Shown here: positions 3,488 to 62,235 of the stretch, in pieces
How positions within the stretch are numbered: the stretch's first letter is position 1
Layout: every line of letters begins with the position of its first letter
Source of the DNA: Escherichia phage vB_Eco_NR1
Sequence record: LR990704
Length of the DNA stretch: 64,000 nt
Reading direction: 5' to 3' (one strand)
Position numbers and translations under genes: made by a program
The notes under the pieces: model-generated
Told to the model about the DNA's origin: nothing
The model's input: the letters and a program-made list of their open reading frames with translations, nothing else
Databases searched by the model: none

Positions 3488-5053
3488 ATGACTATCAAAA
3501 CTAAAGCTGAACTTTTGAACAAATGGAAACCATTACTGGAAGGTGAAGGTTTACCGGAAATTGCTAATAGCAAACAAGCGATTATCGCTAAAATCTTTGA
3601 AAACCAGGAAAAAGATTTCCATACAGCTCCAGAGTACAAAGACGAAAAAATCGCTCAGGCGTTTGGTTCTTTCTTAACAGAAGCTGAAATCGGTGGTGAC
3701 CACGGTTACAACGCTACTAACATCGCTGCTGGTCAGACTTCTGGCGCAGTAACTCAGATTGGCCCAGCTGTTATGGGTATGGTACGTCGTGCTATTCCTA
3801 ACCTGATTGCTTTCGATATTTGCGGTGTTCAGCCGATGAACAGCCCGACTGGTCAGGTATTCGCACTGCGCGCTGTATACGGTAAAGACCCAATCGCTGC
3901 CGATGCTAAAGAAGCATTCCACCCAATGTATGGCCCAGATGCAATGTTCTCTGGTCAGGGTGCTGCTAAGAAATTCCCAGCTCTGGCTGCTAGCACACAA
4001 ACCACAGTAGGTGATATCTATACTCACTTCTTCCAGGACACTGGTACTGTGTATCTGCAGGCTTCTGCTCAAGTAACAATTGATGCTGGTGCGACTGATG
4101 CTGCTAAATTAGATGCTGAAATTAAGAAACAAATGGAAGCAGGTGTACTGGTAGAAATCGCTGAAGGTATGGCTACTTCTATCGCTGAACTTCAGGAAGG
4201 TTTTAACGGTTCTACCGATAACCCATGGAATGAAATGGGCTTCCGTATCGATAAACAAGTTATCGAAGCTAAATCTCGTCAGCTGAAAGCTGCTTACTCT
4301 ATTGAATTAGCACAAGACCTTCGCGCTGTTCACGGTATGGATGCTGATGCTGAACTGTCCGGTATTCTGGCTACCGAAATTATGCTGGAAATCAACCGCG
4401 AAGTTGTTGATTGGATTAACTACTCCGCTCAGGTTGGTAAATCTGGTATGACCCTGACTCCGGGTTCTAAAGCTGGTGTATTTGACTTCCAGGACCCAAT
4501 CGATATTCGTGGTGCTCGCTGGGCGGGTGAATCCTTTAAAGCTCTGTTGTTCCAGATTGACAAAGAAGCAGTTGAAATTGCTCGTCAGACCGGTCGTGGT
4601 GAAGGTAACTTCATTATCGCTTCCCGTAACGTAGTTAACGTTCTGGCTTCAGTTGATACTGGCATTTCTTATGCTGCACAGGGTCTGGCTACCGGCTTTA
4701 ACACTGATACTACCAAGTCAGTATTTGCTGGTGTTCTGGGTGGTAAATACCGTGTATATATCGACCAGTATGCTAAACAGGATTATTTCACTGTAGGTTA
4801 TAAAGGTCCGAACGAAATGGATGCTGGTATTTACTATGCTCCATATGTAGCTCTGACTCCGCTGCGTGGTTCCGATCCGAAGAACTTCCAACCAGTAATG
4901 GGATTCAAAACTCGTTACGGTATCGGTATCAACCCATTTGCAGAATCCGCTGCTCAGGCTCCGGCTTCTCGCATCCAGAGCGGTATGCCTTCTATTCTGA
5001 ATAGCCTTGGTAAAAACGCTTACTTCCGCCGTGTATATGTTAAAGGTATCTAA
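3488..5053 (+). CDS. 23: major capsid protein gp23
   Basis: 521 aa; N-terminus MTIKTKAELLNKWKPLLEGEG.. recognised as T4 gp23; strong SD; stem-loop terminator downstream. Confidence 0.97.
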   Translation: MTIKTKAELLNKWKPLLEGEGLPEIANSKQAIIAKIFENQEKDFHTAPEYKDEKIAQAFGSFLTEAEIGGDHGYNATNIAAGQTSGAVTQIGPAVMGMVRRAIPNLIAFDICGVQPMNSPTGQVFALRAVYGKDPIAADAKEAFHPMYGPDAMFSGQGAAKKFPALAASTQTTVGDIYTHFFQDTGTVYLQASAQVTIDAGATDAAKLDAEIKKQMEAGVLVEIAEGMATSIAELQEGFNGSTDNPWNEMGFRIDKQVIEAKSRQLKAAYSIELAQDLRAVHGMDADAELSGILATEIMLEINREVVDWINYSAQVGKSGMTLTPGSKAGVFDFQDPIDIRGARWAGESFKALLFQIDKEAVEIARQTGRGEGNFIIASRNVVNVLASVDTGISYAAQGLATGFNTDTTKSVFAGVLGGKYRVYIDQYAKQDYFTVGYKGPNEMDAGIYYAPYVALTPLRGSDPKNFQPVMGFKTRYGIGINPFAESAAQAPASRIQSGMPSILNSLGKNAYFRRVYVKGI

Positions 5054-5066
5054 TCTTTGACGATTT

Positions 5067-5097
5067 AAGGGACCTTCGGGTCCCTTTAGTTGTTTTT
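5067..5097 (+). terminator. intrinsic terminator after gene 23
   Basis: AAGGGACC-TTCG-GGTCCCTT stem-loop followed by a T-rich tract. Confidence 0.8.
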
Positions 5098-5101
5098 ATG
5101 G

Positions 5102-5109
5102 TATAAATA
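5102..5109 (+). promoter_or_regulatory. late promoter (TATAAATA) for gene 24
   Basis: Exact TATAAATA 28 nt upstream of the gene 24 ATG, just after the gene 23 terminator. Confidence 0.75.
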
Positions 5110-5136
5110 AATCATATAAACCAAAAGGAAAGCGCA

Positions 5137-6420
5137 ATGGCTAAAATCAACGAACTTCTGCGCGAATCAACCACAACGAATAGCAACTCAATCGGTCGCC
5201 CAAATCTCGTTGCTTTGACTCGCGCTACCACTAAATTAATATATTCTGACATTGTAGCAACGCAAAGAACTAATCAACCTGTTGCTGCTTTTTATGGTAT
5301 CAAATACCTTAACCCAGACAATGAATTTACATTTAAAACTGGTGCTACTTATGCTGGCGAAGCTGGATATGTAGACCGAGAACAAATCACAGAATTAACA
5401 GAAGAGTCTAAATTAACTCTCAATAAAGGCGATTTATTCAAATATAATAATATTGTTTATAAAGTATTAGAAGATACACCATTTGCTGATATTGAAGAAA
5501 GCGATTTAGAATTAGCTCTTCAGATTGCAATTGTTCTTTTAAAGGTTCGTTTATTTTCTGATGCTGCAGTAACAAGCAAATTTGAAAGCTCTGATAGTGA
5601 AATTGCGGATGCTAGATTCCAGATTAATAAATGGCAAACTGCAGTTAAATCTCGTAAACTTAAAACTGGCATTACGGTTGAATTAGCACAAGATTTAGAA
5701 GCAAATGGATTCGATGCTCCTAATTTCTTGGAAGATTTGCTTGCAACTGAAATGGCAGATGAAATCAATAAAGATATTCTGCAATCTTTGATTACAGTAT
5801 CAAAACGCTATAAAGTTACAGGAATTACTGATACTGGATTCATTGATTTGAGTTATGCATCTGCACCTGAAGCTGGTCGTTCATTATACCGAATGGTATG
5901 TGAAATGGTTTCGCATATCCAAAAAGAATCAACTTATACTGCAACGTTCTGTGTTGCTTCAGCTCGTGCCGCTGCGATTCTTGCTGCATCAGGTTGGTTA
6001 AAACATAAACCAGAAGATGACAAATATCTTTCACAAAATGCCTATGGGTTCTTAGCTAATGGTTTACCGCTTTATTGCGATACTAACAGCCCATTAGATT
6101 ATGTAATCGTTGGCGTAGTAGAAAATATTGGCGAAAAAGAAATTGTTGGATCAATTTTCTATGCTCCATATACAGAAGGTCTTGACTTAGATGACCCTGA
6201 ACATGTAGGTGCATTTAAAGTTGTAGTTGATCCAGAAAGTTTGCAGCCATCTATCGGTTTATTAGTTAGATATGCTTTATCAGCAAATCCTTATACCGTA
6301 GCAAAAGATGAAAAAGAAGCAAGAATAATTGACGGTGGAGACATGGATAAAATGGCGGGTCGTTCAGATTTGTCTGTTTTATTAGGTGTTAAGCTACCAA
6401 AAATTATCGTTGATGAATAA
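5137..6420 (+). CDS. 24: capsid vertex protein gp24
   Basis: 427 aa gp23 paralogue in canonical position; late promoter upstream; terminator downstream. Confidence 0.95.
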   Translation: MAKINELLRESTTTNSNSIGRPNLVALTRATTKLIYSDIVATQRTNQPVAAFYGIKYLNPDNEFTFKTGATYAGEAGYVDREQITELTEESKLTLNKGDLFKYNNIVYKVLEDTPFADIEESDLELALQIAIVLLKVRLFSDAAVTSKFESSDSEIADARFQINKWQTAVKSRKLKTGITVELAQDLEANGFDAPNFLEDLLATEMADEINKDILQSLITVSKRYKVTGITDTGFIDLSYASAPEAGRSLYRMVCEMVSHIQKESTYTATFCVASARAAAILAASGWLKHKPEDDKYLSQNAYGFLANGLPLYCDTNSPLDYVIVGVVENIGEKEIVGSIFYAPYTEGLDLDDPEHVGAFKVVVDPESLQPSIGLLVRYALSANPYTVAKDEKEARIIDGGDMDKMAGRSDLSVLLGVKLPKIIVDE

Positions 6421-6426
6421 AACAAA

Positions 6427-6451
6427 GGGACCTTTCGGTCCCTTTTTATTT
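6427..6451 (+). terminator. intrinsic terminator after gene 24
   Basis: GGGACC-TTTC-GGTCCC stem-loop followed by TTTTTATTT. Confidence 0.8.
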
Positions 6452-19943: not shown

Positions 19944-19975
19944 ATGGGGACCTTTCGGTCCCCATATTTTTATTT
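19944..19975 (+). terminator. intrinsic terminator after gene 54
   Basis: ATGGGGACC-TTTC-GGTCCCCAT stem-loop followed by ATTTTTATTT. Confidence 0.85.
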
Positions 19976-20260
19976 ACGGAATGAAATAAAAGCAGCAACT
20001 GAAGCAACTAAACTGTCTTCAATATAAACCTCAATTTTTACCGGAGCTTCTGACTCAAATTTACCTGTTACTACACCTTGGAAAATACTTTCAGTCTGTT
20101 CTGGCTTTGAAAAATTTTCAGAAGGAAAAATTCCGAACTTTTTATCTGTTCCAAAAATTTTGATAAATTCATCGTAAACTGCTTCATTAAAAGCATTATC
20201 AGCAGGAATAACGCCTTCAACTACAAGTTCTTGACCTAAAAAGCGTAAAGAAGATTTCAT
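19970..20260 (-). CDS. hypothetical protein, 96 aa
   Basis: ORF directly downstream of the repeated early-promoter/leader cassette (20268..20321), GAGGA Shine-Dalgarno. Confidence 0.65.
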   Translation of the reverse strand: MKSSLRFLGQELVVEGVIPADNAFNEAVYDEFIKIFGTDKKFGIFPSENFSKPEQTESIFQGVVTGKFESEAPVKIEVYIEDSLVASVAAFISFRK

Positions 20261-20267
20261 TTTGTGT

Positions 20268-20321
20268 TCCTCATGTTATGTCAGTAAGACTACTATAACA
20301 CAACACGAGGGACTTGTAAAC
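20268..20321 (-). repeat. 54 bp early promoter/5' leader cassette, copy 1
   Basis: 53 of 54 nt identical to 35115..35168; minus strand GTTTACA, 17 nt, TATAGT, then leader ending in GAGGA. Confidence 0.85.
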
Positions 20322-22378
20322 TACATTTTGAACTTTTTAGACATTCCGTTGATGTTAACCAAAGAAGCTAAGATTTGAGAAACTTCATTTTCCTCTTCTT
20401 TTGATTCTTCTACAAGGAATTGATTAAATCCAGCCATTGGACGAACTTCACCAGTTTCCATTAAATGGTCGCCATCATATACTGATTCTTCTAATTGTTC
20501 AGAAGGAGGAACGATTGTACCTTCTATTAGATACTTGTTATAAGCAGTTTCTTTCATAAAGTACGTGCTCACTTTATTAATCTTCAGTAAAATTCCACGC
20601 GGTAGAATAACTTCAGCTTCTGATGGAAATCCTGATAAATGACCTGGAACGATAACTTTGATTCGCTCAGCTCCTTTAATTACCATACCCACGCTAATTT
20701 CAGCATCTTCATTAGCATATGTAGAATGACTACCCATATGCATCAAATCTTCTGCATCAACGGAACCTTCTCCTTCACCAGAAAATACTGCACCGGAATC
20801 ATCTAGAGCCATATAGTTTTTACCATGCTCACCGAAGATATTTGGTTTAAGCGATGTGGATACGAAGTTCTTGAAATAGAACATTTTATTTTCAATGTTA
20901 TGACGCAAAGTTTTAAAGGTAACTTCTTGCCCACGATAAAGAGTAGTTCCTGGAGGAAGAACAGAACCTTTAGCAAATGCAGAATCCAACGTCTCGATGT
21001 GTTTAATAGCTCGTTCCATATATTCTTCACGGGTAGAATCAGGTTTACCTAAAAGGAACGAGTTCATTTCAACATATGAATCTGCACAATAATCTTCAAT
21101 TACATCAGACTCAGCCTGAGTTAATCCTTTTGGAGTTACTTCAGTGCTTGCGTATTCATATGCCTGAGCGGCAGATTCATTAATCAATTTATAAATGCCA
21201 TTCATGACAAATTGAATAATAGCTGTCTTTTCATCTGGTGTAGCTTTAGAACCTTTAACTAAATCATTGATAATTTTCTTAATAACATCAAAGCTATTAG
21301 AAATATTAATGTCAGCAAGATCGCTTAAAATTTTATCAGTTTTATAATCAAAGAATTCTTTATTCTTTAAATATTCTTGAGAACCTTGATATGTTATATC
21401 GCTCTGCAACTTGATAGATGGATCACGTAAACGTGCATGGGCTAATGCAATATGATTTCGGAAACTTTCTAGTTCATAATCGTTAGATTTAAAACGAGAA
21501 GCACTTCTCATACCACCGATAGCTCCTTTGCTAAAGTTTGAACCAATCTGAATAACGCCAGAGTTCATCGGACCTTCTGCTTTATATACCGGAACTTTAG
21601 ATTCAAACTCTTGATATTTCTTAGCAGCGAAGCTATCACCCTGAAGTGAAGCATCAACAGTAGAATATTGAGCTTGTGCTGCTAATCGACGACTAATTTT
21701 AGTTTTCTGAATAACAGCTTGGTCCGTGCGCTTATCATTTTCTAAAGCAATAGAAGCAGCAACAGCAACAGCTTTAGGAACAGCATTACCTGTTTTAACA
21801 TCTACATAAACATCACCAATCTTTGATTCAACTTTTGCGAATAACTCAGTTGAAATAGGAGGTACACCTGGAATGTCTTCTAAATTGGCATTTTTACGGT
21901 AAACCATAATATATGCGTACTTTTTATCATAATCCCAGATTTCCTTTAAAAGAACATATCGACCTGCTCCTTTAGTACGTACTAAACGGTCAGCAATAAC
22001 TTGCATTTGACGAGCTGCGCCATTTGTTTTACTTTTTAGTACGCGGAATAGGCATGCGTCGATTTTATACTGTTTCATTGTTTGAAGAGCAGTATCAAAA
22101 ACAGCATTAATGACGCCAATTGGATTTCCACCCAAGTTTCTAAGCTTGACTAACGATAATTTCTCGTTGACACCTATCATTACGATATGCATCATTTTGT
22201 CGCCTGGCTTAACGTTTTTATTCGTATCACCGCCAGAGGTGTATGTACAAAATCTAAATCCAGGAAGCACGCTTTCTTCACCGGCTTGAATAGCAAAAAT
22301 TTGTGGTATTTTATGCTTAGGATTTAAGTTAACAACCGGCGCCGAAGCGCCGTCAAATAATTCTGTAATAAGTTCCAT
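20321..22378 (-). CDS. Alt-like ADP-ribosyltransferase, second paralogue (685 aa)
   Basis: N-terminus MELITELFD.. almost identical to Alt; C-terminal region has Arg (YRGQ), STS (FVSTSL) and EAE (PSEAEVILPRG) ART motifs. Confidence 0.85.
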   Translation of the reverse strand: MELITELFDGASAPVVNLNPKHKIPQIFAIQAGEESVLPGFRFCTYTSGGDTNKNVKPGDKMMHIVMIGVNEKLSLVKLRNLGGNPIGVINAVFDTALQTMKQYKIDACLFRVLKSKTNGAARQMQVIADRLVRTKGAGRYVLLKEIWDYDKKYAYIMVYRKNANLEDIPGVPPISTELFAKVESKIGDVYVDVKTGNAVPKAVAVAASIALENDKRTDQAVIQKTKISRRLAAQAQYSTVDASLQGDSFAAKKYQEFESKVPVYKAEGPMNSGVIQIGSNFSKGAIGGMRSASRFKSNDYELESFRNHIALAHARLRDPSIKLQSDITYQGSQEYLKNKEFFDYKTDKILSDLADINISNSFDVIKKIINDLVKGSKATPDEKTAIIQFVMNGIYKLINESAAQAYEYASTEVTPKGLTQAESDVIEDYCADSYVEMNSFLLGKPDSTREEYMERAIKHIETLDSAFAKGSVLPPGTTLYRGQEVTFKTLRHNIENKMFYFKNFVSTSLKPNIFGEHGKNYMALDDSGAVFSGEGEGSVDAEDLMHMGSHSTYANEDAEISVGMVIKGAERIKVIVPGHLSGFPSEAEVILPRGILLKINKVSTYFMKETAYNKYLIEGTIVPPSEQLEESVYDGDHLMETGEVRPMAGFNQFLVEESKEEENEVSQILASLVNINGMSKKFKM

Positions 22379-22381
22379 GAT

Positions 22382-24478
22382 TTATCCTTGAACGAACTTG
22401 TAAGGCATGTTTGTAATATCTATGCAAGACGCAATAATTCCAAGAGATGATTCTACTTTCTGTTTAATATTTGATGAAACAAATGATGCAAAGTCAACTC
22501 TGTCTTCTATTTCAATATCACCTGTCATTGCAACTACTTCGCCAGTTTCCATTAAACGGTCACCGTCATAAATTACCGATTCGGTGAGTTCTTCGGTGGT
22601 CATAACTTCAGCTTGAATGAGTTTTGTATTATTAGACGTGGTTCCGTCATTATTAGAAGCATCAGTTATTTTATTAACTTTGACCATCAATCCGCGCGGT
22701 AGAATAACTTCGGCTTCTGTTGCTATTCCGAGACTTCCTGGATATACAACATTAACTTTATGAGCTCCATCAATTGCCCATCCTATTTGAACTTTAACGT
22801 ATTCAGGATTTTCTTTATACGCTCTTATTTCGTTTGGATTAATAGTTATTCCTTCTTCATTTTTATCAACTGTTAATTCATTGCGAGCTTCTGGTTCTAA
22901 AAGACCAATACCAGCATGTGTAATTCCAAAACGTCCAAAAATGATAGGAGTTAAAGAAGTAGATACAAAATTTCTGAAATAGAACACTTTATTTTTAACT
23001 AGTGCTTCGTATATAGGAGCAGTCATACTTTGAGCACGATAAACTGTAATGCCTTCCGGTATACGGTCACCATTTTCAAAAGCTGAATCTAAATTATTTA
23101 TAGCAGATTCAATTTCTTTTTCACTCATTATATCATATCGTTCTGGATTGTAACGACCTAAAAGAAGATTATTGATGTCTGTATATCCTGAACCACAATA
23201 CTCTCTAATGCCGCGCTTTTGTGATGGAGTATATTTAGAACCATCACGGGCAATAGTAATATCAATCATTGGACCTGCACCAATTCCGGAAAAGCTATAA
23301 ATCATTCGTTTGAGGAATTTAGTTTTTGCTGCATTCCAGGCATTTTTAGTTATTTCTCCCCAGACTTCATCTGGTTGCCCTTTACGAGTTTTATTATGTT
23401 TATCAAGCCAATTATCTTTATATTCTTCAAAGAATTTATTAACAGCTGCTGCGTATTTCTCTAAACATTTTATTGAAGTAGTTGGTTCATTTTTGATTGC
23501 GTTAAAAATTACATCTTTAATTTTTTCGGAAACTTCATCAACCTCACTTTTTGAAAAGAATTTATAGTCATAGTGAAGTTCATTCGCAGTTCCTTCGGCA
23601 ATAATTTTTGCTGCCTTAGTTTTAGAAGCTAATGAATTAATTCCAAGCTTCATTTCTTCTGCTTCGGGAATTAAAGGAGCGGTAGCAGGTTTATTGAAAT
23701 TAGCTGCGGTAGATTCATACTTCTGGAATAATTCACTTTCAAATCTAGAAGACTCTAACGATTGACTTTGTGCAATTGCTCTACGGGAAATTTTAACTTT
23801 AACGATTACAGCTTGGTCAGAACGTTTATCGTTTTCTTGTGCAATAGATGCTGCAATTGCCTCATTTTTAGTTACTTGAGCCCCAGTATCTTTATTGATA
23901 TAAACATCACCGACCTTCGATTCAACTTTAGTAAAGAGCTCGGTACTAATTTCCGGAACTCCTGGAATGTCTTCTAGTGATACATTTTTGCGATGTATAA
24001 GAATATATGCATACTTTTTATCATAATCCCAGAGTTCCTTAAGAAGGACGTATCTGCCACCTGAACGACTACGGATAAGTCTATCAGCAATAACTTGAAT
24101 TTGTCGAGCTTGACCAGCGGTTTTAGACTTAAGAATACGGAGCATACAGGCATCAATTTTATACTGACGCATTGTTTGCATTGCAACAGTAAAAACTGAA
24201 TTGATATAATTAATTGGGCTTGGACCAAGACCTTTTAATTTAGCAATTGAACCTTTAGCAGTTAATGTAAAAGGAACAATATGCATCATTTTATCGCCCA
24301 TCTTTAAATCGCGATTAGTATCACCTCCAGATGTATAGGTACATAAACGAAAGCCTGGCTGTTCAATTGCATCATCAACGTGAACTGAAAAAATTTGCGG
24401 TATTTTCTTCTTTGGATTTAAGTTTGTAATCGGAAGAGTAGTATCTTCGTCAAATAATTCTGTAATAAGTTCCATCAT
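22382..24478 (-). CDS. alt: Alt ADP-ribosyltransferase (capsid-packaged, injected)
   Basis: 698 aa; MMELITELFDEDTTLPITNLNPKKKIPQIF.. recognised as T4 Alt; R / STS / EAE motifs; late promoter and SD upstream. Confidence 0.9.
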   Translation of the reverse strand: MMELITELFDEDTTLPITNLNPKKKIPQIFSVHVDDAIEQPGFRLCTYTSGGDTNRDLKMGDKMMHIVPFTLTAKGSIAKLKGLGPSPINYINSVFTVAMQTMRQYKIDACMLRILKSKTAGQARQIQVIADRLIRSRSGGRYVLLKELWDYDKKYAYILIHRKNVSLEDIPGVPEISTELFTKVESKVGDVYINKDTGAQVTKNEAIAASIAQENDKRSDQAVIVKVKISRRAIAQSQSLESSRFESELFQKYESTAANFNKPATAPLIPEAEEMKLGINSLASKTKAAKIIAEGTANELHYDYKFFSKSEVDEVSEKIKDVIFNAIKNEPTTSIKCLEKYAAAVNKFFEEYKDNWLDKHNKTRKGQPDEVWGEITKNAWNAAKTKFLKRMIYSFSGIGAGPMIDITIARDGSKYTPSQKRGIREYCGSGYTDINNLLLGRYNPERYDIMSEKEIESAINNLDSAFENGDRIPEGITVYRAQSMTAPIYEALVKNKVFYFRNFVSTSLTPIIFGRFGITHAGIGLLEPEARNELTVDKNEEGITINPNEIRAYKENPEYVKVQIGWAIDGAHKVNVVYPGSLGIATEAEVILPRGLMVKVNKITDASNNDGTTSNNTKLIQAEVMTTEELTESVIYDGDRLMETGEVVAMTGDIEIEDRVDFASFVSSNIKQKVESSLGIIASCIDITNMPYKFVQG

Positions 24479-24498: not shown

Positions 24499-24506
24499 TA
24501 TTTATA
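24499..24506 (-). promoter_or_regulatory. late promoter (minus strand) for alt
   Basis: Reverse-complement TATAAATA about 20 nt upstream of the alt ATG; fits Alt being a late, capsid-packaged protein. Confidence 0.65.
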
Positions 24507-28455: not shown

Positions 28456-28821
28456 TTAAATATCAAATTCATTAAGAACTACATCAAAGATTGCTTCAAG
28501 ATGCTCAGGTTTGGCTTTGTTACTCAGAATATGACGAATCCAAGTTTTAACTAAAAGTTTACGATTAACACCATTCCAGCAAGGATGAGTCCCTAAATCG
28601 CGTTGACGGAAATCATCATCCAGAGCGATTTTAAAGTTGGAACCTTCCATCGTGATTGAAACCGTGATACCGTTTTCAAATCGCATATAAACGTAGTTAG
28701 GAGTCATATACTGTTCAATTTCGCATACTGAACCATTTTGATGTTTCCAAAGGCAGATGGTATCAATAGAACCTGCAATACCATTAGAAACATATTTACG
28801 TTCAAAGTTGATGTAGTTCAT
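28456..28821 (-). CDS. 30.7: hypothetical protein (T4 30.7 position)
   Basis: 121 aa ORF downstream of an early promoter with dyad symmetry. Confidence 0.7.
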   Translation of the reverse strand: MNYINFERKYVSNGIAGSIDTICLWKHQNGSVCEIEQYMTPNYVYMRFENGITVSITMEGSNFKIALDDDFRQRDLGTHPCWNGVNRKLLVKTWIRHILSNKAKPEHLEAIFDVVLNEFDI

Positions 28822-28858
28822 TTTTATTCTCCGGGATGTTTAATTGCGGTACAGGTAT

Positions 28859-28887
28859 ATAATATCATATCCTGTACCAAAGTAAAC
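28859..28887 (-). promoter_or_regulatory. sigma70-type early promoter upstream of 30.7, -10 bracketed by an 8 bp inverted repeat
   Basis: Minus strand GTTTAC, 17 nt, TATTAT; inverted repeat GGTACAGG / CCTGTACC at 28848..28878. Confidence 0.5.
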
Positions 28888-29032: not shown

Positions 29033-29221
29033 TCAATTCATAAATCCAACCAGTAAAGAAATTATGAACTTGAATTGTAAAGGTGAAATCTGTTCCATAC
29101 CTTCTGCTGTTTCTACTTCAATAATATCACCTTCAACTGCCATTAAGAACCACATAGTTTCATCATATTTACCATTGAAGCATTTAGTTTTAACTGTAGC
29201 GTTCAGATTAATCGTTTTCAT
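29033..29221 (-). CDS. 30.8: hypothetical protein, 62 aa, possibly the N-terminal part of a frameshifted 30.8
   Basis: ORF with SD (AAGGAG) and early promoter upstream; the -1 frame stays open for about 46 more codons to 28890. Confidence 0.55.
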   Translation of the reverse strand: MKTINLNATVKTKCFNGKYDETMWFLMAVEGDIIEVETAEGMEQISPLQFKFIISLLVGFMN

Positions 29222-29294
29222 TTTATTCTCCTTTGTTTGTGTAAGATAATACTATCACAAAGGAGCTATACTGTAAACAACTTTATGCAATCTT

Positions 29295-29327
29295 TGGAAA
29301 ATAAAAAAGGACTCCCGAAGGAGTCCT
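29295..29327 (-). terminator. intrinsic terminator after 30.9
   Basis: AGGACUCC-UUCG-GGAGUCCU stem-loop followed by UUUUUUAUUUU on the minus strand. Confidence 0.8.
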
Positions 29328-29331
29328 CAAC

Positions 29332-31878: not shown

Positions 31879-32111
31879 AGTACGCCATACACCCTTTGTG
31901 CTTCAACTAATCCATCAAAATCCAGTTTAAGATGCGATATTTGATCGCCATCACCTGGATTCACAATTACTAATACTGAACGAGGAGTTTCGGTAATAAC
32001 ACGAACCGATGTTTCAGGAAATCGTTCAGAAACCTTATTTACCAATTCCTGCGCAAATAGTTTAACTTTTTCTTGGAATTCTTTAACAGTAATTGGTTTT
32101 TCACTTAGCAT
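31875..32111 (-). CDS. hypothetical protein, 78 aa (cd.x cluster)
   Basis: ORF downstream of an early promoter with dyad symmetry. Confidence 0.6.
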   Translation of the reverse strand: MLSEKPITVKEFQEKVKLFAQELVNKVSERFPETSVRVITETPRSVLVIVNPGDGDQISHLKLDFDGLVEAQRVYGVL

Positions 32112-32139
32112 TTTGTTTTCCTCATTTGTTTTGGTAGAG

Positions 32140-32171
32140 CTATAATATCACAACTCTACCATAAAGTAAAC
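32140..32171 (-). promoter_or_regulatory. sigma70-type early promoter upstream of the 78 aa cd.x ORF, -10 bracketed by a 7 bp inverted repeat
   Basis: Minus strand GTTTAC .. TATTAT; inverted repeat GGTAGAG / CTCTACC at about 32133..32160. Confidence 0.5.
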
Positions 32172-34263: not shown

Positions 34264-34613
34264 TTAGAAAGGTCCTGGATGTCTTCTGCGAACTTGTTGA
34301 AGGAATTGTTGATTTGTTTTTCAACCAATCCTGGCTTACGAGCCACCACATCCGCCTTCTTTGCGTCTTTGCGCAGCTTTTCATTTTCACGCTCAATAGC
34401 AGCAATTGCCTCACGATTTTTAGTATTCATCGCATCAATATAATTATACTGAATTCGCAAATTATTTAATGCTAAAGCGTTTTCATTGGCTGTTTTTGTA
34501 ATTTCAGTAACTGATGTTTCTAATCTTTCTACCTTATTTTTTAAAATAATAGATGTTCCGCCAAATGCTATTACAAGTAATAGCAATCCAGCTGTTGTAT
34601 TACTTAATTGCAT
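34260..34613 (-). CDS. inner-membrane spanin (T4 pseT.3-like)
   Basis: 117 aa; N-terminal transmembrane helix followed by coiled-coil; ATGA coupling to the o-spanin. Confidence 0.7.
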   Translation of the reverse strand: MQLSNTTAGLLLLVIAFGGTSIILKNKVERLETSVTEITKTANENALALNNLRIQYNYIDAMNTKNREAIAAIERENEKLRKDAKKADVVARKPGLVEKQINNSFNKFAEDIQDLSK

Positions 34614-35107
34614 AAAGTTTTAATAACCTCTATAATATCGTCTTGAGAAAGACCGTTAATTAAAATATGATGTTCAGCCGGAGATTTAGAAATTTTAAAG
34701 CATGCCTCAACATCTTCTGCCATATCCGATGCACTACGATTTGGATTACTAATTCCAAGACGATGCTTTCCAGTCAAAGGATTAACGATGATATAGCATT
34801 TGCAGCTATTGATATGAACATTAGGCTGAGTCTGATTAATGAACACTTCGCAATCATACTTAGCGAGTTGATTTTCTAAAAAGACTTTCATCTCTTCAAC
34901 CGCATCAGGAAGCATATCACGGGCTTGCTCAAGACGACGATTTCGATATTCTTTAATGGTCGTTTTCCGCTTGACTTGCTTAGCTAAATCTTTCTTAAGA
35001 TCGGTGATATATCCAACTCGACGATTTCCTTTGAATACAGAAATCCCATCTGTAGTATCACCGTATGCTTCAACGACCATTTCAGTAGTAATAAGTTGTA
35101 AATCCAT
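34604..35107 (-). CDS. alc: Alc, inhibitor of host transcription elongation
   Basis: 167 aa from the second Met; preceded by the repeated early promoter/leader cassette. Confidence 0.85.
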   Translation of the reverse strand: MDLQLITTEMVVEAYGDTTDGISVFKGNRRVGYITDLKKDLAKQVKRKTTIKEYRNRRLEQARDMLPDAVEEMKVFLENQLAKYDCEVFINQTQPNVHINSCKCYIIVNPLTGKHRLGISNPNRSASDMAEDVEACFKISKSPAEHHILINGLSQDDIIEVIKTLCN

Positions 35108-35114
35108 CATAAAG

Positions 35115-35168
35115 TCCTCATGTTATGTCAGTAAGACTACTGTAACACAACACGAGGGACTTGTAAAC
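35115..35168 (-). repeat. 54 bp early promoter/5' leader cassette, copy 2 (upstream of alc)
   Basis: 53 of 54 nt identical to 20268..20321; starts 3 nt after the rnlA stop. Confidence 0.85.
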
Positions 35169-35171
35169 AGC

Positions 35172-36759
<1,588 letters not shown>

Positions 36760-43739: not shown

Positions 43740-43982
43740 TTAAACAGACTTTTTCACAATTTTCCAATCGGCTTTAAACTGCTCGACGTCAGAATGGTAA
43801 ATCCAAAATCCTGCGCTTTCACCGTCTTCATAAAGCGGACACCCATCACATTCATCTTCCCATCCCATGCCACGTAAAAGGTGTTCAGCTTTTTCAACAA
43901 GTTCAGAATCTTTACCGATGATATTAAAATACCATTTACCTCTAACTTCCGAATCTTTGATGCTCTGACGTTGTAATCTCAT
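43740..43982 (-). CDS. hypothetical protein, about 80 aa (frd.2-like)
   Basis: ATG with AAGGAG SD at 43982; the provided ORF extends to an upstream TTG at 44039. Confidence 0.6.
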   Translation of the reverse strand: MRLQRQSIKDSEVRGKWYFNIIGKDSELVEKAEHLLRGMGWEDECDGCPLYEDGESAGFWIYHSDVEQFKADWKIVKKSV

Positions 43983-44009
43983 TTTATTCTCCTTAGTTGA
44001 TAAGGCTAT

Positions 44010-44037
44010 AGTATCATTACCATAGCCCGTTGTAAAC
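44010..44037 (-). promoter_or_regulatory. sigma70-type early promoter upstream of the frd.2-like ORF, with 6 bp inverted repeat
   Basis: Minus strand GTTTACA, 17 nt, TACTAT; inverted repeat GGCTAT / ATAGCC at about 44004..44027. Confidence 0.45.
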
Positions 44038-44957: not shown

Positions 44958-45051
44958 ATTATTTTCCTCTTTAATCATCAGCAGTATTGCCGATAGTTGT
45001 ATAGTACCATAGAAGGACAAGGATGTAAACCATTTTGTGAAAAAATTTTTG

Positions 45052-62138: not shown

Positions 62139-62235
62139 TTTCTAATCTCCGTAATTCTGTATCAGTAGTTGATAGTTGTATAGTACCACAGTATGCTTTG
62201 GTTGTAAACCGTTTTGTGAAAAAAAAAAAATTTTG

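Follow-up and report, generated by a model that had tools for sequence, protein, structure and literature searches.

Why does a 54-bp stretch of DNA occur twice and almost unchanged, 15 kb apart, in the genome of a T4-type phage, each time carrying a predicted early promoter and each time placed just before a gene? We asked this of a cassette in Escherichia phage vB_Eco_NR1 (sequence record LR990704), within a stretch of 64,000 nucleotides that was analyzed as a whole and is called the window here; it belongs to Tequatrovirus and is ~98% identical to RB32-like phages. Copy 1 of the cassette (20268 to 20321) sits between alt.-2 and alt.-3 and copy 2 (35115 to 35168) between rnlA and alc, the neighboring genes being named from the RB32 and T4 annotation plus Pfam. 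The answer that we favor, with a probability of roughly 0.6, is that the cassette gates the translation of alc and alt.-3 according to the promoter from which their RNA was started, and that it was copied from alc to alt.-3 and has been homogenized by gene conversion. It draws on the repeat itself, the predicted structure, the covariation of that structure across genera, its absence from alt.-3 outside the genus, and sequence variants held by both copies. The probability is limited to this figure because transcription starts, read-through, and translational effects, along with the biological purpose, were inferred.

The two stretches, both read on the minus strand, were compared directly and found to be identical at 53 of 54 bases, as the original prediction had stated from the sequence of the window. 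The sole mismatch is the third base of the -10 hexamer, which is T in copy 1 (TATAGT) and C in copy 2 (TACAGT), and the cassette reads GTTTACAAGTCCCTCGTGTTGTGTTA[T/C]AGTAGTCTTACTGACATAACATGAGGA. Identity extends from the G of GTTTACA to the last A of GAGGA, and the flanking DNA is unrelated between the copies. When the window was searched for further copies with up to 3 mismatches, exactly these two sites were returned and no third, where none was expected (100 dinucleotide shuffles). In phage records, the 54-mer was present at 997 places in 499 records, two per genome, and T4 itself carries the pair (NC_000866, 123040 to 123093 and 136283 to 136336). Because T4 and 498 other records each carry two copies, the cassette pair is a fixed trait of the T4 genus and not a quirk of this isolate; the duplication is older than the radiation of the 499 genomes. 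Copy 1 was also confirmed to lie, as predicted, between the stop codon of an Alt paralogue and a 96-aa open reading frame (ORF), which are alt.-2 and alt.-3.

A consensus scan bore out, as a sequence match, the prediction of a sigma70-type promoter in each copy, both with a TG extended -10, and a GAGGA Shine-Dalgarno (SD) sequence was found 3' of each promoter, again as predicted. The T4 early promoter class is described as an UP region, a -35 GTTTAC, TGn, and a -10, in which the shared consensus extends past the -35 and -10; this class and both cassettes have in common GTTTACA, a spacer of 17 nt, TGn, and TAnnnT. In ordinary T4 early promoters, however, the consensus blocks are alike and the spacer and leader are not, whereas the two copies studied here are identical through spacer and leader, so that the identity does reach well past the promoter elements, as had been claimed. 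Upstream of the -35, copy 1 has A-rich coding sequence and copy 2 has mixed sequence, with no similarity between them and no common conserved UP region. From the position of the -10 (25 to 30) and standard sigma70 geometry, transcription would start near A37 (cassette position 37), 7 nt after the -10. Our literature search, which did not extend to the classical T4 promoter compilations, found no T4 transcription-start map.

The most distinctive property of the cassette is the RNA structure that it is predicted to encode. The minimum-free-energy fold is a 14- to 15-bp stem in which positions 12 to 25 (CCCUCGUGUUGUGU) pair with positions 40 to 53 (GACAUAACAUGAGG), topped by a short inner stem. 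The computed folding energy of the 54-mer was -22.0 kcal/mol (z score, -5.4) for copy 1 and -23.3 kcal/mol (z, -4.6) for copy 2, and none of 200 shuffles folded as well. Within the stem, the GAGG of the SD pairs with CCUC of an anti-SD (CCCUC in the RNA) located shortly past the -35. The -35 is 0 to 3 nt past the stop codon of the upstream gene, and the hairpin begins ~11 to 14 nt past that stop. Since the stem spans the spacer, the -10, and the SD, the hairpin can form only in RNA that began upstream of the promoter, and since A37 lies past positions 12 to 25, RNA from the cassette's own promoter would lack the 5' arm; the geometry thus suits transcripts without the 5' strand, if the start is correctly placed. 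The computed cost of opening GAGGA was 10 to 11 kcal/mol in read-through RNA versus 1.6 to 2.0 kcal/mol in RNA starting at A37. The original prediction had seen the inverted repeat TGTTAT..ATAACA and placed it in the leader; the repeat is there, but it is the middle of the 14- to 15-bp stem, with its 5' half in the promoter. The Tequatrovirus stem contains three G.U pairs, and the sense RNA folds 6 to 8 kcal/mol better than the antisense RNA. We consider it very probable that the hairpin is a selected RNA structure.

Several known types of element were compared with this hairpin. An intrinsic terminator was ruled out: neither cassette appeared in the terminator scan, and there is no U tract, the tails being AACACAAAAUG and CUUUAUGAUG. 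Rfam gave 0 matches at the gathering score over the whole window, and at 20200 to 20400 only chance-level microRNA and long noncoding RNA hits (E > 2). A RegB site in the T4 SD was dropped, the Tequatrovirus SD being GAGGA without GGAG, though other genera do have GGAG. The likeness of the 5' arm (UUGUGUUAUAGUA) to a RegA operator, as represented by a SELEX sequence, was weak and lies far from the AUG.

The same design was found at alc in several other genera. Alc homologues were present in 1,136 phage records, and the rnlA-alc spacer, ~60 nt in length, was compared in other genera. A hairpin of the same geometry, built from different stem sequences, was present in at least nine genera (Tequatro-, Gelderland-, Karam-, Jiaoda-, Braga-, Marfa-, Dhaka-, Roskilde-, and Winklervirus; arms in Table 1), with the 5' arm right after GTTTACA, the -10 in the loop or the 5' arm, and the 3' arm ending in the SD. 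The z scores of the alc leaders in the genera with the hairpin were -3.9 to -6.8, and the SD was paired to positions 8 to 13, directly past the -35. In a wider sample from IMG/VR and GenBank (54 cassettes, 38 distinct), 30 of the 38 distinct cassettes had three or more of the four SD bases in pairs with the promoter spacer. A change of the SD between GGAG and GAGG goes with one between TCTCC and TCCTC in the spacer, and 30/30 and 29/30 of the pairs are Watson-Crick. With the pairing register set by rule (13 pairs, anchored on the base that follows the last GGAG or GAGG), 89% of cells paired versus 67% in column shuffles, the covariation score was 0.605 versus 0.21, and double-sided changes numbered 95 versus 35; for each of these measures, 0 of 1,000 shuffles reached the observed value. 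A hand alignment of ten sequences agreed, and sliding the partners by 1 to 3 columns reduced the score to 0.16 or less.

Standard alignment tools were of limited use for these leaders. With nine alc leaders aligned by MAFFT, RNAalifold recovered only 6 pairs, the arms being shifted when MAFFT brings the promoter blocks into line; MAFFT also re-gapped an N-padded structural alignment, and the pair measures were computed in Python instead. A covariance model (R1) detected the alc leaders along with additional cassettes, but it placed the T4-type stem in the wrong register and matched the reverse strand of near-palindromes, and its alignment was not used for the counts. An exact-pattern scan of IMG/VR returned only 9 loci.

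At alt.-3, which has homologues in 836 records, the long hairpin was found in Tequatrovirus only, among the genera sampled. The alt.-3 cassettes from outside the genus (six GenBank genomes plus eight distinct sequences from 19 IMG/VR loci) had the promoter consensus and a ...CATGAGGA leader in common, and in none of them was any SD base paired to the promoter (z, -2.5 to +0.6). By this sequence comparison, the long hairpin is ancestral at alc. Given this, and with the hairpin confined to Tequatrovirus at alt.-3, parsimony favors a replacement of the alt.-3 cassette by the alc one in the Tequatrovirus ancestor. A different arrangement was seen in Mosigvirus JK42, whose alc cassette (L013 6574 to 6637; also L007 and L060) has no SD hairpin and an alt.-3-type look. 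The Mosigvirus alc cassette shows 82% identity with the alt.-3 cassette of Dhakavirus and 79% with that of Mosigvirus, against a background of 56 to 73%, which suggests a cassette swap opposite in direction to that in Tequatrovirus.

The alt.-3 cassettes of the other genera have a smaller hairpin of their own in the promoter spacer (L012 ~19945 to 20003; L013 19942 to 20003; L082 to L100 upstream of position 401), with a co-varying stem of 5 to 6 bp and the loop ACA(A/U)GGA(A/U)GU. The loop closely matches RUACARGGAUGU, the CsrA consensus, and the GGA of the SD lies ~35 nt downstream. As it would be confined to read-through RNA, this hairpin might silence that RNA via CsrA. A literature check confirmed the occurrence of the string RUACARGGAUGU, and only that, in 23 papers (PMC4347634 among them).

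Exchange between the two Tequatrovirus copies appears to have continued after the copying. Both copies were compared in nine Tequatrovirus genomes. PP01 and UFV10 have G29A and G32A in both copies, G29A making the -10 a perfect TATAAT, and GBLB0003 has G16A and T27C in both copies; one IMG/VR genome has G29A and G32A in the alt.-3 copy only, and C11T, C15T, and G16A are common to the alt.-3 copies of T6, GBLB0003, and a third genome (L078). Because the same derived changes sit in both paralogous copies of one genome, these data indicate that the copies exchange short tracts by ongoing gene conversion. Much of this variation keeps the stem: G16A turns G.U49 into A-U, C15T with G50A turns C-G into U-A, and T27C and G40A strike both partners of one U.G wobble. 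The stem-breaking exceptions, T6 alc G16T and GBLB0003 alc G40T, cause one mismatch each. The original prediction that the two loci could recombine or invert therefore held for recombination, as seen in the variants common to both copies of a genome, and failed for inversion, which is impossible because the repeats are direct. A crossover between them would delete or duplicate ~15 kb including genes 30 and 31, which are essential in T4, and gene conversion is the only visible exchange.

For the hairpin to act, RNA must enter the cassette from upstream. A T4 late-promoter motif (TATAAATA) 5' of alt is the likely source of late RNA crossing copy 1, and no terminator-like site was found by the terminator scan on the minus strand between this motif and 19965. 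Because of this combination, late alt/alt.-2 mRNA should run through copy 1 into alt.-3. The terminator scan also found no terminator-like site at the rnlA-alc junction. In the mechanism that we propose, the DNA specifying an RNA hairpin contains a strong sigma70-type T4 early promoter. RNA from the embedded promoter, starting at A37, would have no 5' arm and an open SD, so that alc or alt.-3 would be translated. RNA from further upstream would contain both arms and would lock the SD in a helix of about -22 kcal/mol, so that the downstream cistron would be silent. The long RNA would come from the late alt/alt.-2 transcript at copy 1 and from nrd-denA-rnlA transcripts at copy 2. Translation of each gene would thereby depend on how active its own early promoter is. 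Ectopic gene conversion would have put the alc cassette in place of the alt.-3 promoter cassette in the Tequatrovirus ancestor, with tract exchange continuing since. The features concerned are collected in Table 1.

Table 1. Positions in the window of the two cassettes, their parts, and related features, with hairpin arms at alc in other genera
Feature	Position	Strand	Remarks
Cassette copy 1	20268..20321	-	Numbered from the G of GTTTACA (position 1, 20321) to the last A of GAGGA (position 54, 20268); 5' of alt.-3; repeat family D7
Cassette copy 2	35115..35168	-	5' of alc; position 27 is C where copy 1 has T
Copy 1 promoter-like site	20292..20320	-	-35 TTTACA (20320-20315), 17-nt spacer with TGn, -10 TATAGT (20297-20292); consensus scan
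Copy 2 promoter-like site	35139..35167	-	TTTACA, 17 nt, TACAGT, with TGn; consensus scan
Predicted transcription start A37, copy 1	20285	-	7 nt after -10, standard sigma70 geometry
Predicted transcription start, equivalent base, copy 2	35132	-	As for copy 1
Copy 1 hairpin 5' arm	20297..20310	-	Positions 12-25, CCCTCGTGTTGTGT: anti-SD CCCTC, promoter spacer, TGn, first -10 base
Copy 1 hairpin 3' arm	20269..20282	-	Positions 40-53, GACATAACATGAGG: includes SD GAGG
Copy 2 hairpin 5' arm	35144..35157	-	Minimum-free-energy structure
Copy 2 hairpin 3' arm	35116..35129	-	SD included; minimum-free-energy structure, opening-cost calculation
alt.-2	20321..22378	-	Full-length 685-aa Alt paralogue, Pfam ADP-ribosyltransferase; TAG stop overlaps first base of copy 1
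alt.-3	19970..20260	-	96 aa, DUF5498; gene 3' of copy 1, proposed as its target
rnlA (RNA ligase 1)	35172..36296	-	Stop codon 3 nt before copy 2
alc (Pfam ALC; host-transcription inhibitor)	34604..35110	-	Gene 3' of copy 2, proposed as its target
T4 late-promoter motif TATAAATA	24499..24506	-	20-23 nt 5' of tandem alt start codons (ATGATG, 24478-24473)
Terminator-like hairpin after alt.-3	19944..19965	both	Bidirectional; end of leftward transcription unit, between alt.-3 and gene 54
Gene 30.8 cassette	29219..29278	-	Unrelated sequence, same design: spacer anti-SD CTCCTTTGT pairs with SD-bearing ACAAAGGAG, z -3.7; also T4 locus L002 10752-10811, L012 11084-11156
Three early promoters	32109-32171, 28819-28887, 43980-44037	-	Hairpins z -3.5 to -5.9, -10 in loop or arms, ending before SD
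Gelderlandvirus alc stem arms			TCTCCGTTTAGTT / AACTAAACGGAGA
Karamvirus alc stem arms			TCTCCATTTGGTT / AACCAAATGGAGA
Jiaodavirus alc stem arms			TCCTCATCAG / CTGATGAGGA
Bragavirus alc stem arms			ACCTCTCATTTTT / GAAAATGAGAGGT
Marfavirus alc stem arms			CCTCGTTTGTT / AACAAACGAGG
Dhakavirus alc stem arms			TCTCCTCAT / ATGAGGAGA
Roskildevirus alc stem arms			TCTCCTCAG / CTGAGGAGA
Winklervirus alc stem arms			TCCTCATTTCGTT / AACGAAATGAGGA

We compared this mechanism with the SD-sequestering helices of the T4 genes e, soc, 49, and I-TevI. According to a review, the read-through RNA in which these helices form is early and middle, and translatable RNA comes from a late promoter in the region of the 5' strand. 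The likeness is close: in the cassette, as in those genes, the SD would be inside a helix of upstream-started transcripts, the promoter is in or beside the DNA of the 5' strand, so that RNA of its own would be without that strand and open to translation, and the design is kept among T4 relatives. The difference is in the embedded promoter, which in those four genes is late (TATAAATA), with late genes being silenced in early and middle RNA, and which here is a sigma70 early promoter; no TATAAATA was found in either cassette. Because the embedded promoter is early, the timing logic would be reversed, and we read the cassette as the early-promoter counterpart of these occlusion hairpins. The review that lists SD-occluding structures makes no mention of alc, alt.-3, or 30.8, and our literature search, beyond which older literature may hold an earlier description, found no paper on this repeat or on an alc hairpin.

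A number of points weigh against translational gating as the whole explanation. T27C weakens the -10 of copy 2, so that equal promoter function of the two copies is not assured. There is no late-promoter motif (TATAAATA) near rnlA, so read-through into alc would proceed without an identified upstream late promoter. Both the A37 start and the read-through were derived from sequence. The covariation alignments, by hand and by rule, were guided by the structure, and the sequences were selected for SD pairing, which biases pairs 1 to 4 but not pairs 5 to 12, where most of the covariation falls. Mosigvirus and Gaprivervirus have lost the hairpin at alc, and in Providencia phage PSTCR6 and in three further lineages (L056, L062, and L072) a strong hairpin surrounds the -10 and ends 3 to 5 nt before the SD. 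The three early promoters listed in Table 1 have hairpins that also stop before the SD. Because some alc lineages and these three promoters have it in this form, the primary selected property could be a hairpin that spans the promoter and not the masking of the SD as such; this weakens SD masking as the only selected function and allows for a part played in RNA processing or stability.

Such a role is the first of the alternatives that we weighed, and we regard it as unlikely. The hairpin would be a processing or stability element for the upstream message, acting as a barrier to 3' exonucleases after leader cleavage, as a site of the RNase III type, or as a shield of the SD against RegB, and masking of the SD would be a side effect of the ~60-nt intergenic space. 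Its start so soon after the rnlA or alt.-2 stop codon agrees with this, as do the lineages and early promoters in which it ends before the SD; RNA structure has been reported to protect GGAG from RegB, and GGAG is the alc SD in many genera. However, the exact covariation of SD and anti-SD (GGAG with TCTCC versus GAGG with TCCTC) would be expected if pairing of the SD was itself selected, and the 14- to 15-bp stem with its G.U pairs is shorter than classical RNase III substrates. A processing role is also compatible with translational masking, which follows physically from the structure.

Less probable again is a mobile promoter cassette of the PeSL (promoter-early stem-loop) type, to which the original prediction had likened the repeat and which would provide homology for modular shuffling, deletion, or the formation of mini-circles. 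In PeSLs, a terminator stem-loop is located just 5' of the promoter, and many copies occur in hyperplastic regions by variable ORFs and indels (Arbiol 2010; Comeau 2014). Both kinds of element are compact early promoter-SD-start codon cassettes that are repeated in the genome and whose copies recombine. The PeSL papers show promoter cassettes recombining, and here the two cassettes do exchange sequence, the Mosigvirus alc cassette stands above background in its identity to the Dhakavirus alt.-3 cassette, and the alc cassettes of two of the above lineages (L056 and L072) resemble the cd.3 promoter cassette of the window. In the phage studied here, the stem encloses the -10 and the SD, only 0 to 3 nt lie between the upstream stop and the -35, the terminator scan found no terminator-like site just 5' of either promoter, and there are two copies per genome in 499 genomes, with no hyperplastic clustering. 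The resemblance was not borne out, and membership among the PeSLs was ruled out because there is no upstream stem-loop. Comparison of the flanks with those of relatives gave no general sign of a gene-content breakpoint at the cassette: most of the genera compared keep synteny at both the rnlA-alc and the alt-alt.-3 junction, with Gaprivervirus and Acj9, which have an extra ORF between rnlA and alc, as exceptions. A crossover between direct repeats would remove genes 30 and 31, and the covariation reflects selection on RNA pairing, which homology for recombination leaves unexplained.

In the Gaprivervirus arrangement (L014 5446 to 5679; L005 1257 to 1490), rnlA and alc are separated by an additional 77-aa ORF with an Alc-like annotation. 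The promoter 5' of this ORF follows a terminator-like GGGG...CCCC hairpin and is more PeSL-like than the T4 arrangement.

A plain duplicated strong early promoter, with an incidental hairpin and an identity due to recent duplication, is very improbable. The promoter consensus is excellent, and the extended consensus of T4 early promoters is well known, but hairpins with z scores of -4.6 to -5.4, a structure kept with different sequences in nine genera, and a duplication that predates the radiation of the 499 genomes all oppose it. A second promoter repeat in the window, 44992 to 45045 versus 62171 to 62224 (family D11), shows the pattern that is ordinary for T4 early promoters: it is 83% identical over 54 nt, and only the UP, -35, -10, and +1 blocks are alike, the spacer being different. 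An element that acts as DNA, whether by forming a cruciform or by serving as the operator at which a dimeric protein shuts off early promoters, is just as improbable, for, although inverted repeats are centered on the -10 at 6 of 9 early promoters in the window and the shut-off of early promoters has been described as incompletely understood, the arm sequences differ among promoters and genera and so offer no common operator, the stem has three G.U pairs and folds better as sense RNA, and a 12-nt loop disfavors cruciform extrusion.

Promoter-dependent gating of translation, if it is correct, may not be limited to these two genes. The window contains nine early-promoter-plus-ORF cassettes, six of which have a significant hairpin (z of -3.4 or lower) that encloses the -10; the SD is within the stem at the alc, alt.-3, and gene 30.8 promoters and outside it at the other three. 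The stem at gene 30.8 co-varies in Dhakavirus phage Bp7 (TCTCCGGT/ACTGGAGA), and a terminator-like hairpin at 29307 to 29328 precedes the gene 30.8 promoter. We tentatively suggest, as something that may well prove not to hold, that T4-type phages have a general class of early-promoter cassettes that are embedded in RNA hairpins and act as exchangeable regulatory modules. Examples in which the stem contains the SD would be alc, alt.-3, and 30.8, and examples in which the -10 is enclosed would be cd.3, 30.7-like, and others; its exchanges would be the one from alc to alt.-3 in Tequatrovirus and, apparently, one of an alt.-3-type cassette to alc in Mosigvirus. The CsrA-like GGA hairpin in the spacer may give the alt.-3-type cassettes another way to the same end. 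If such a class exists, the promoter of origin would decide whether a cistron is translated and would confine synthesis to the immediate-early window, which could contribute to the still unexplained fast drop in early protein synthesis.

In the literature searched, the known SD-occluding hairpins of T4 (e, soc, 49, and I-TevI) all silence late genes in early RNA, and an early promoter in such a hairpin would be the reverse switch. An early gene would then be limited to transcripts from its own promoter, which bears on the timing of early protein synthesis. The element also shows a regulatory module that was copied from one locus to another at a distance of 15 kb, gene conversion having kept the copies alike, and its structure has been kept across at least nine genera despite turnover of the stem sequence. 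Its presence in T4 itself makes it open to standard genetics, and mutants in alt.-3 have been described that escape the CmdTAC defense.

Several further observations were made around the two loci. The window contains two full-length tandem Alt ADP-ribosyltransferase paralogues, at 20321 to 22378 and 22382 to 24478 (repeat families D1, D6, D9, D14, and D20; spacing of ~2.1 kb). In T4, only the alt.-1 and alt.-2 fragments are left of the second Alt paralogue, and the alt.-2 ORF of T4, which is truncated, ends at a TAG inside the -10 of the cassette. The T4 annotation of alc uses the second ATG (35107), 7 nt past GAGGA, and in phage Bp7 (NC_019500; L012 ~4709 to 5200) the alc ORF is present and unannotated in the RefSeq record. 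In the T4 record, the loop of the cd.3 promoter, which is the one at 32109 to 32171 in the window, is flagged "inverted complement of previously reported sequence." The terminator hairpin GGGACCTTTCGGTCCC occurs at two places in the window, after alt.-3 at 19944 to 19965 and at 6427 to 6442 (family D17).

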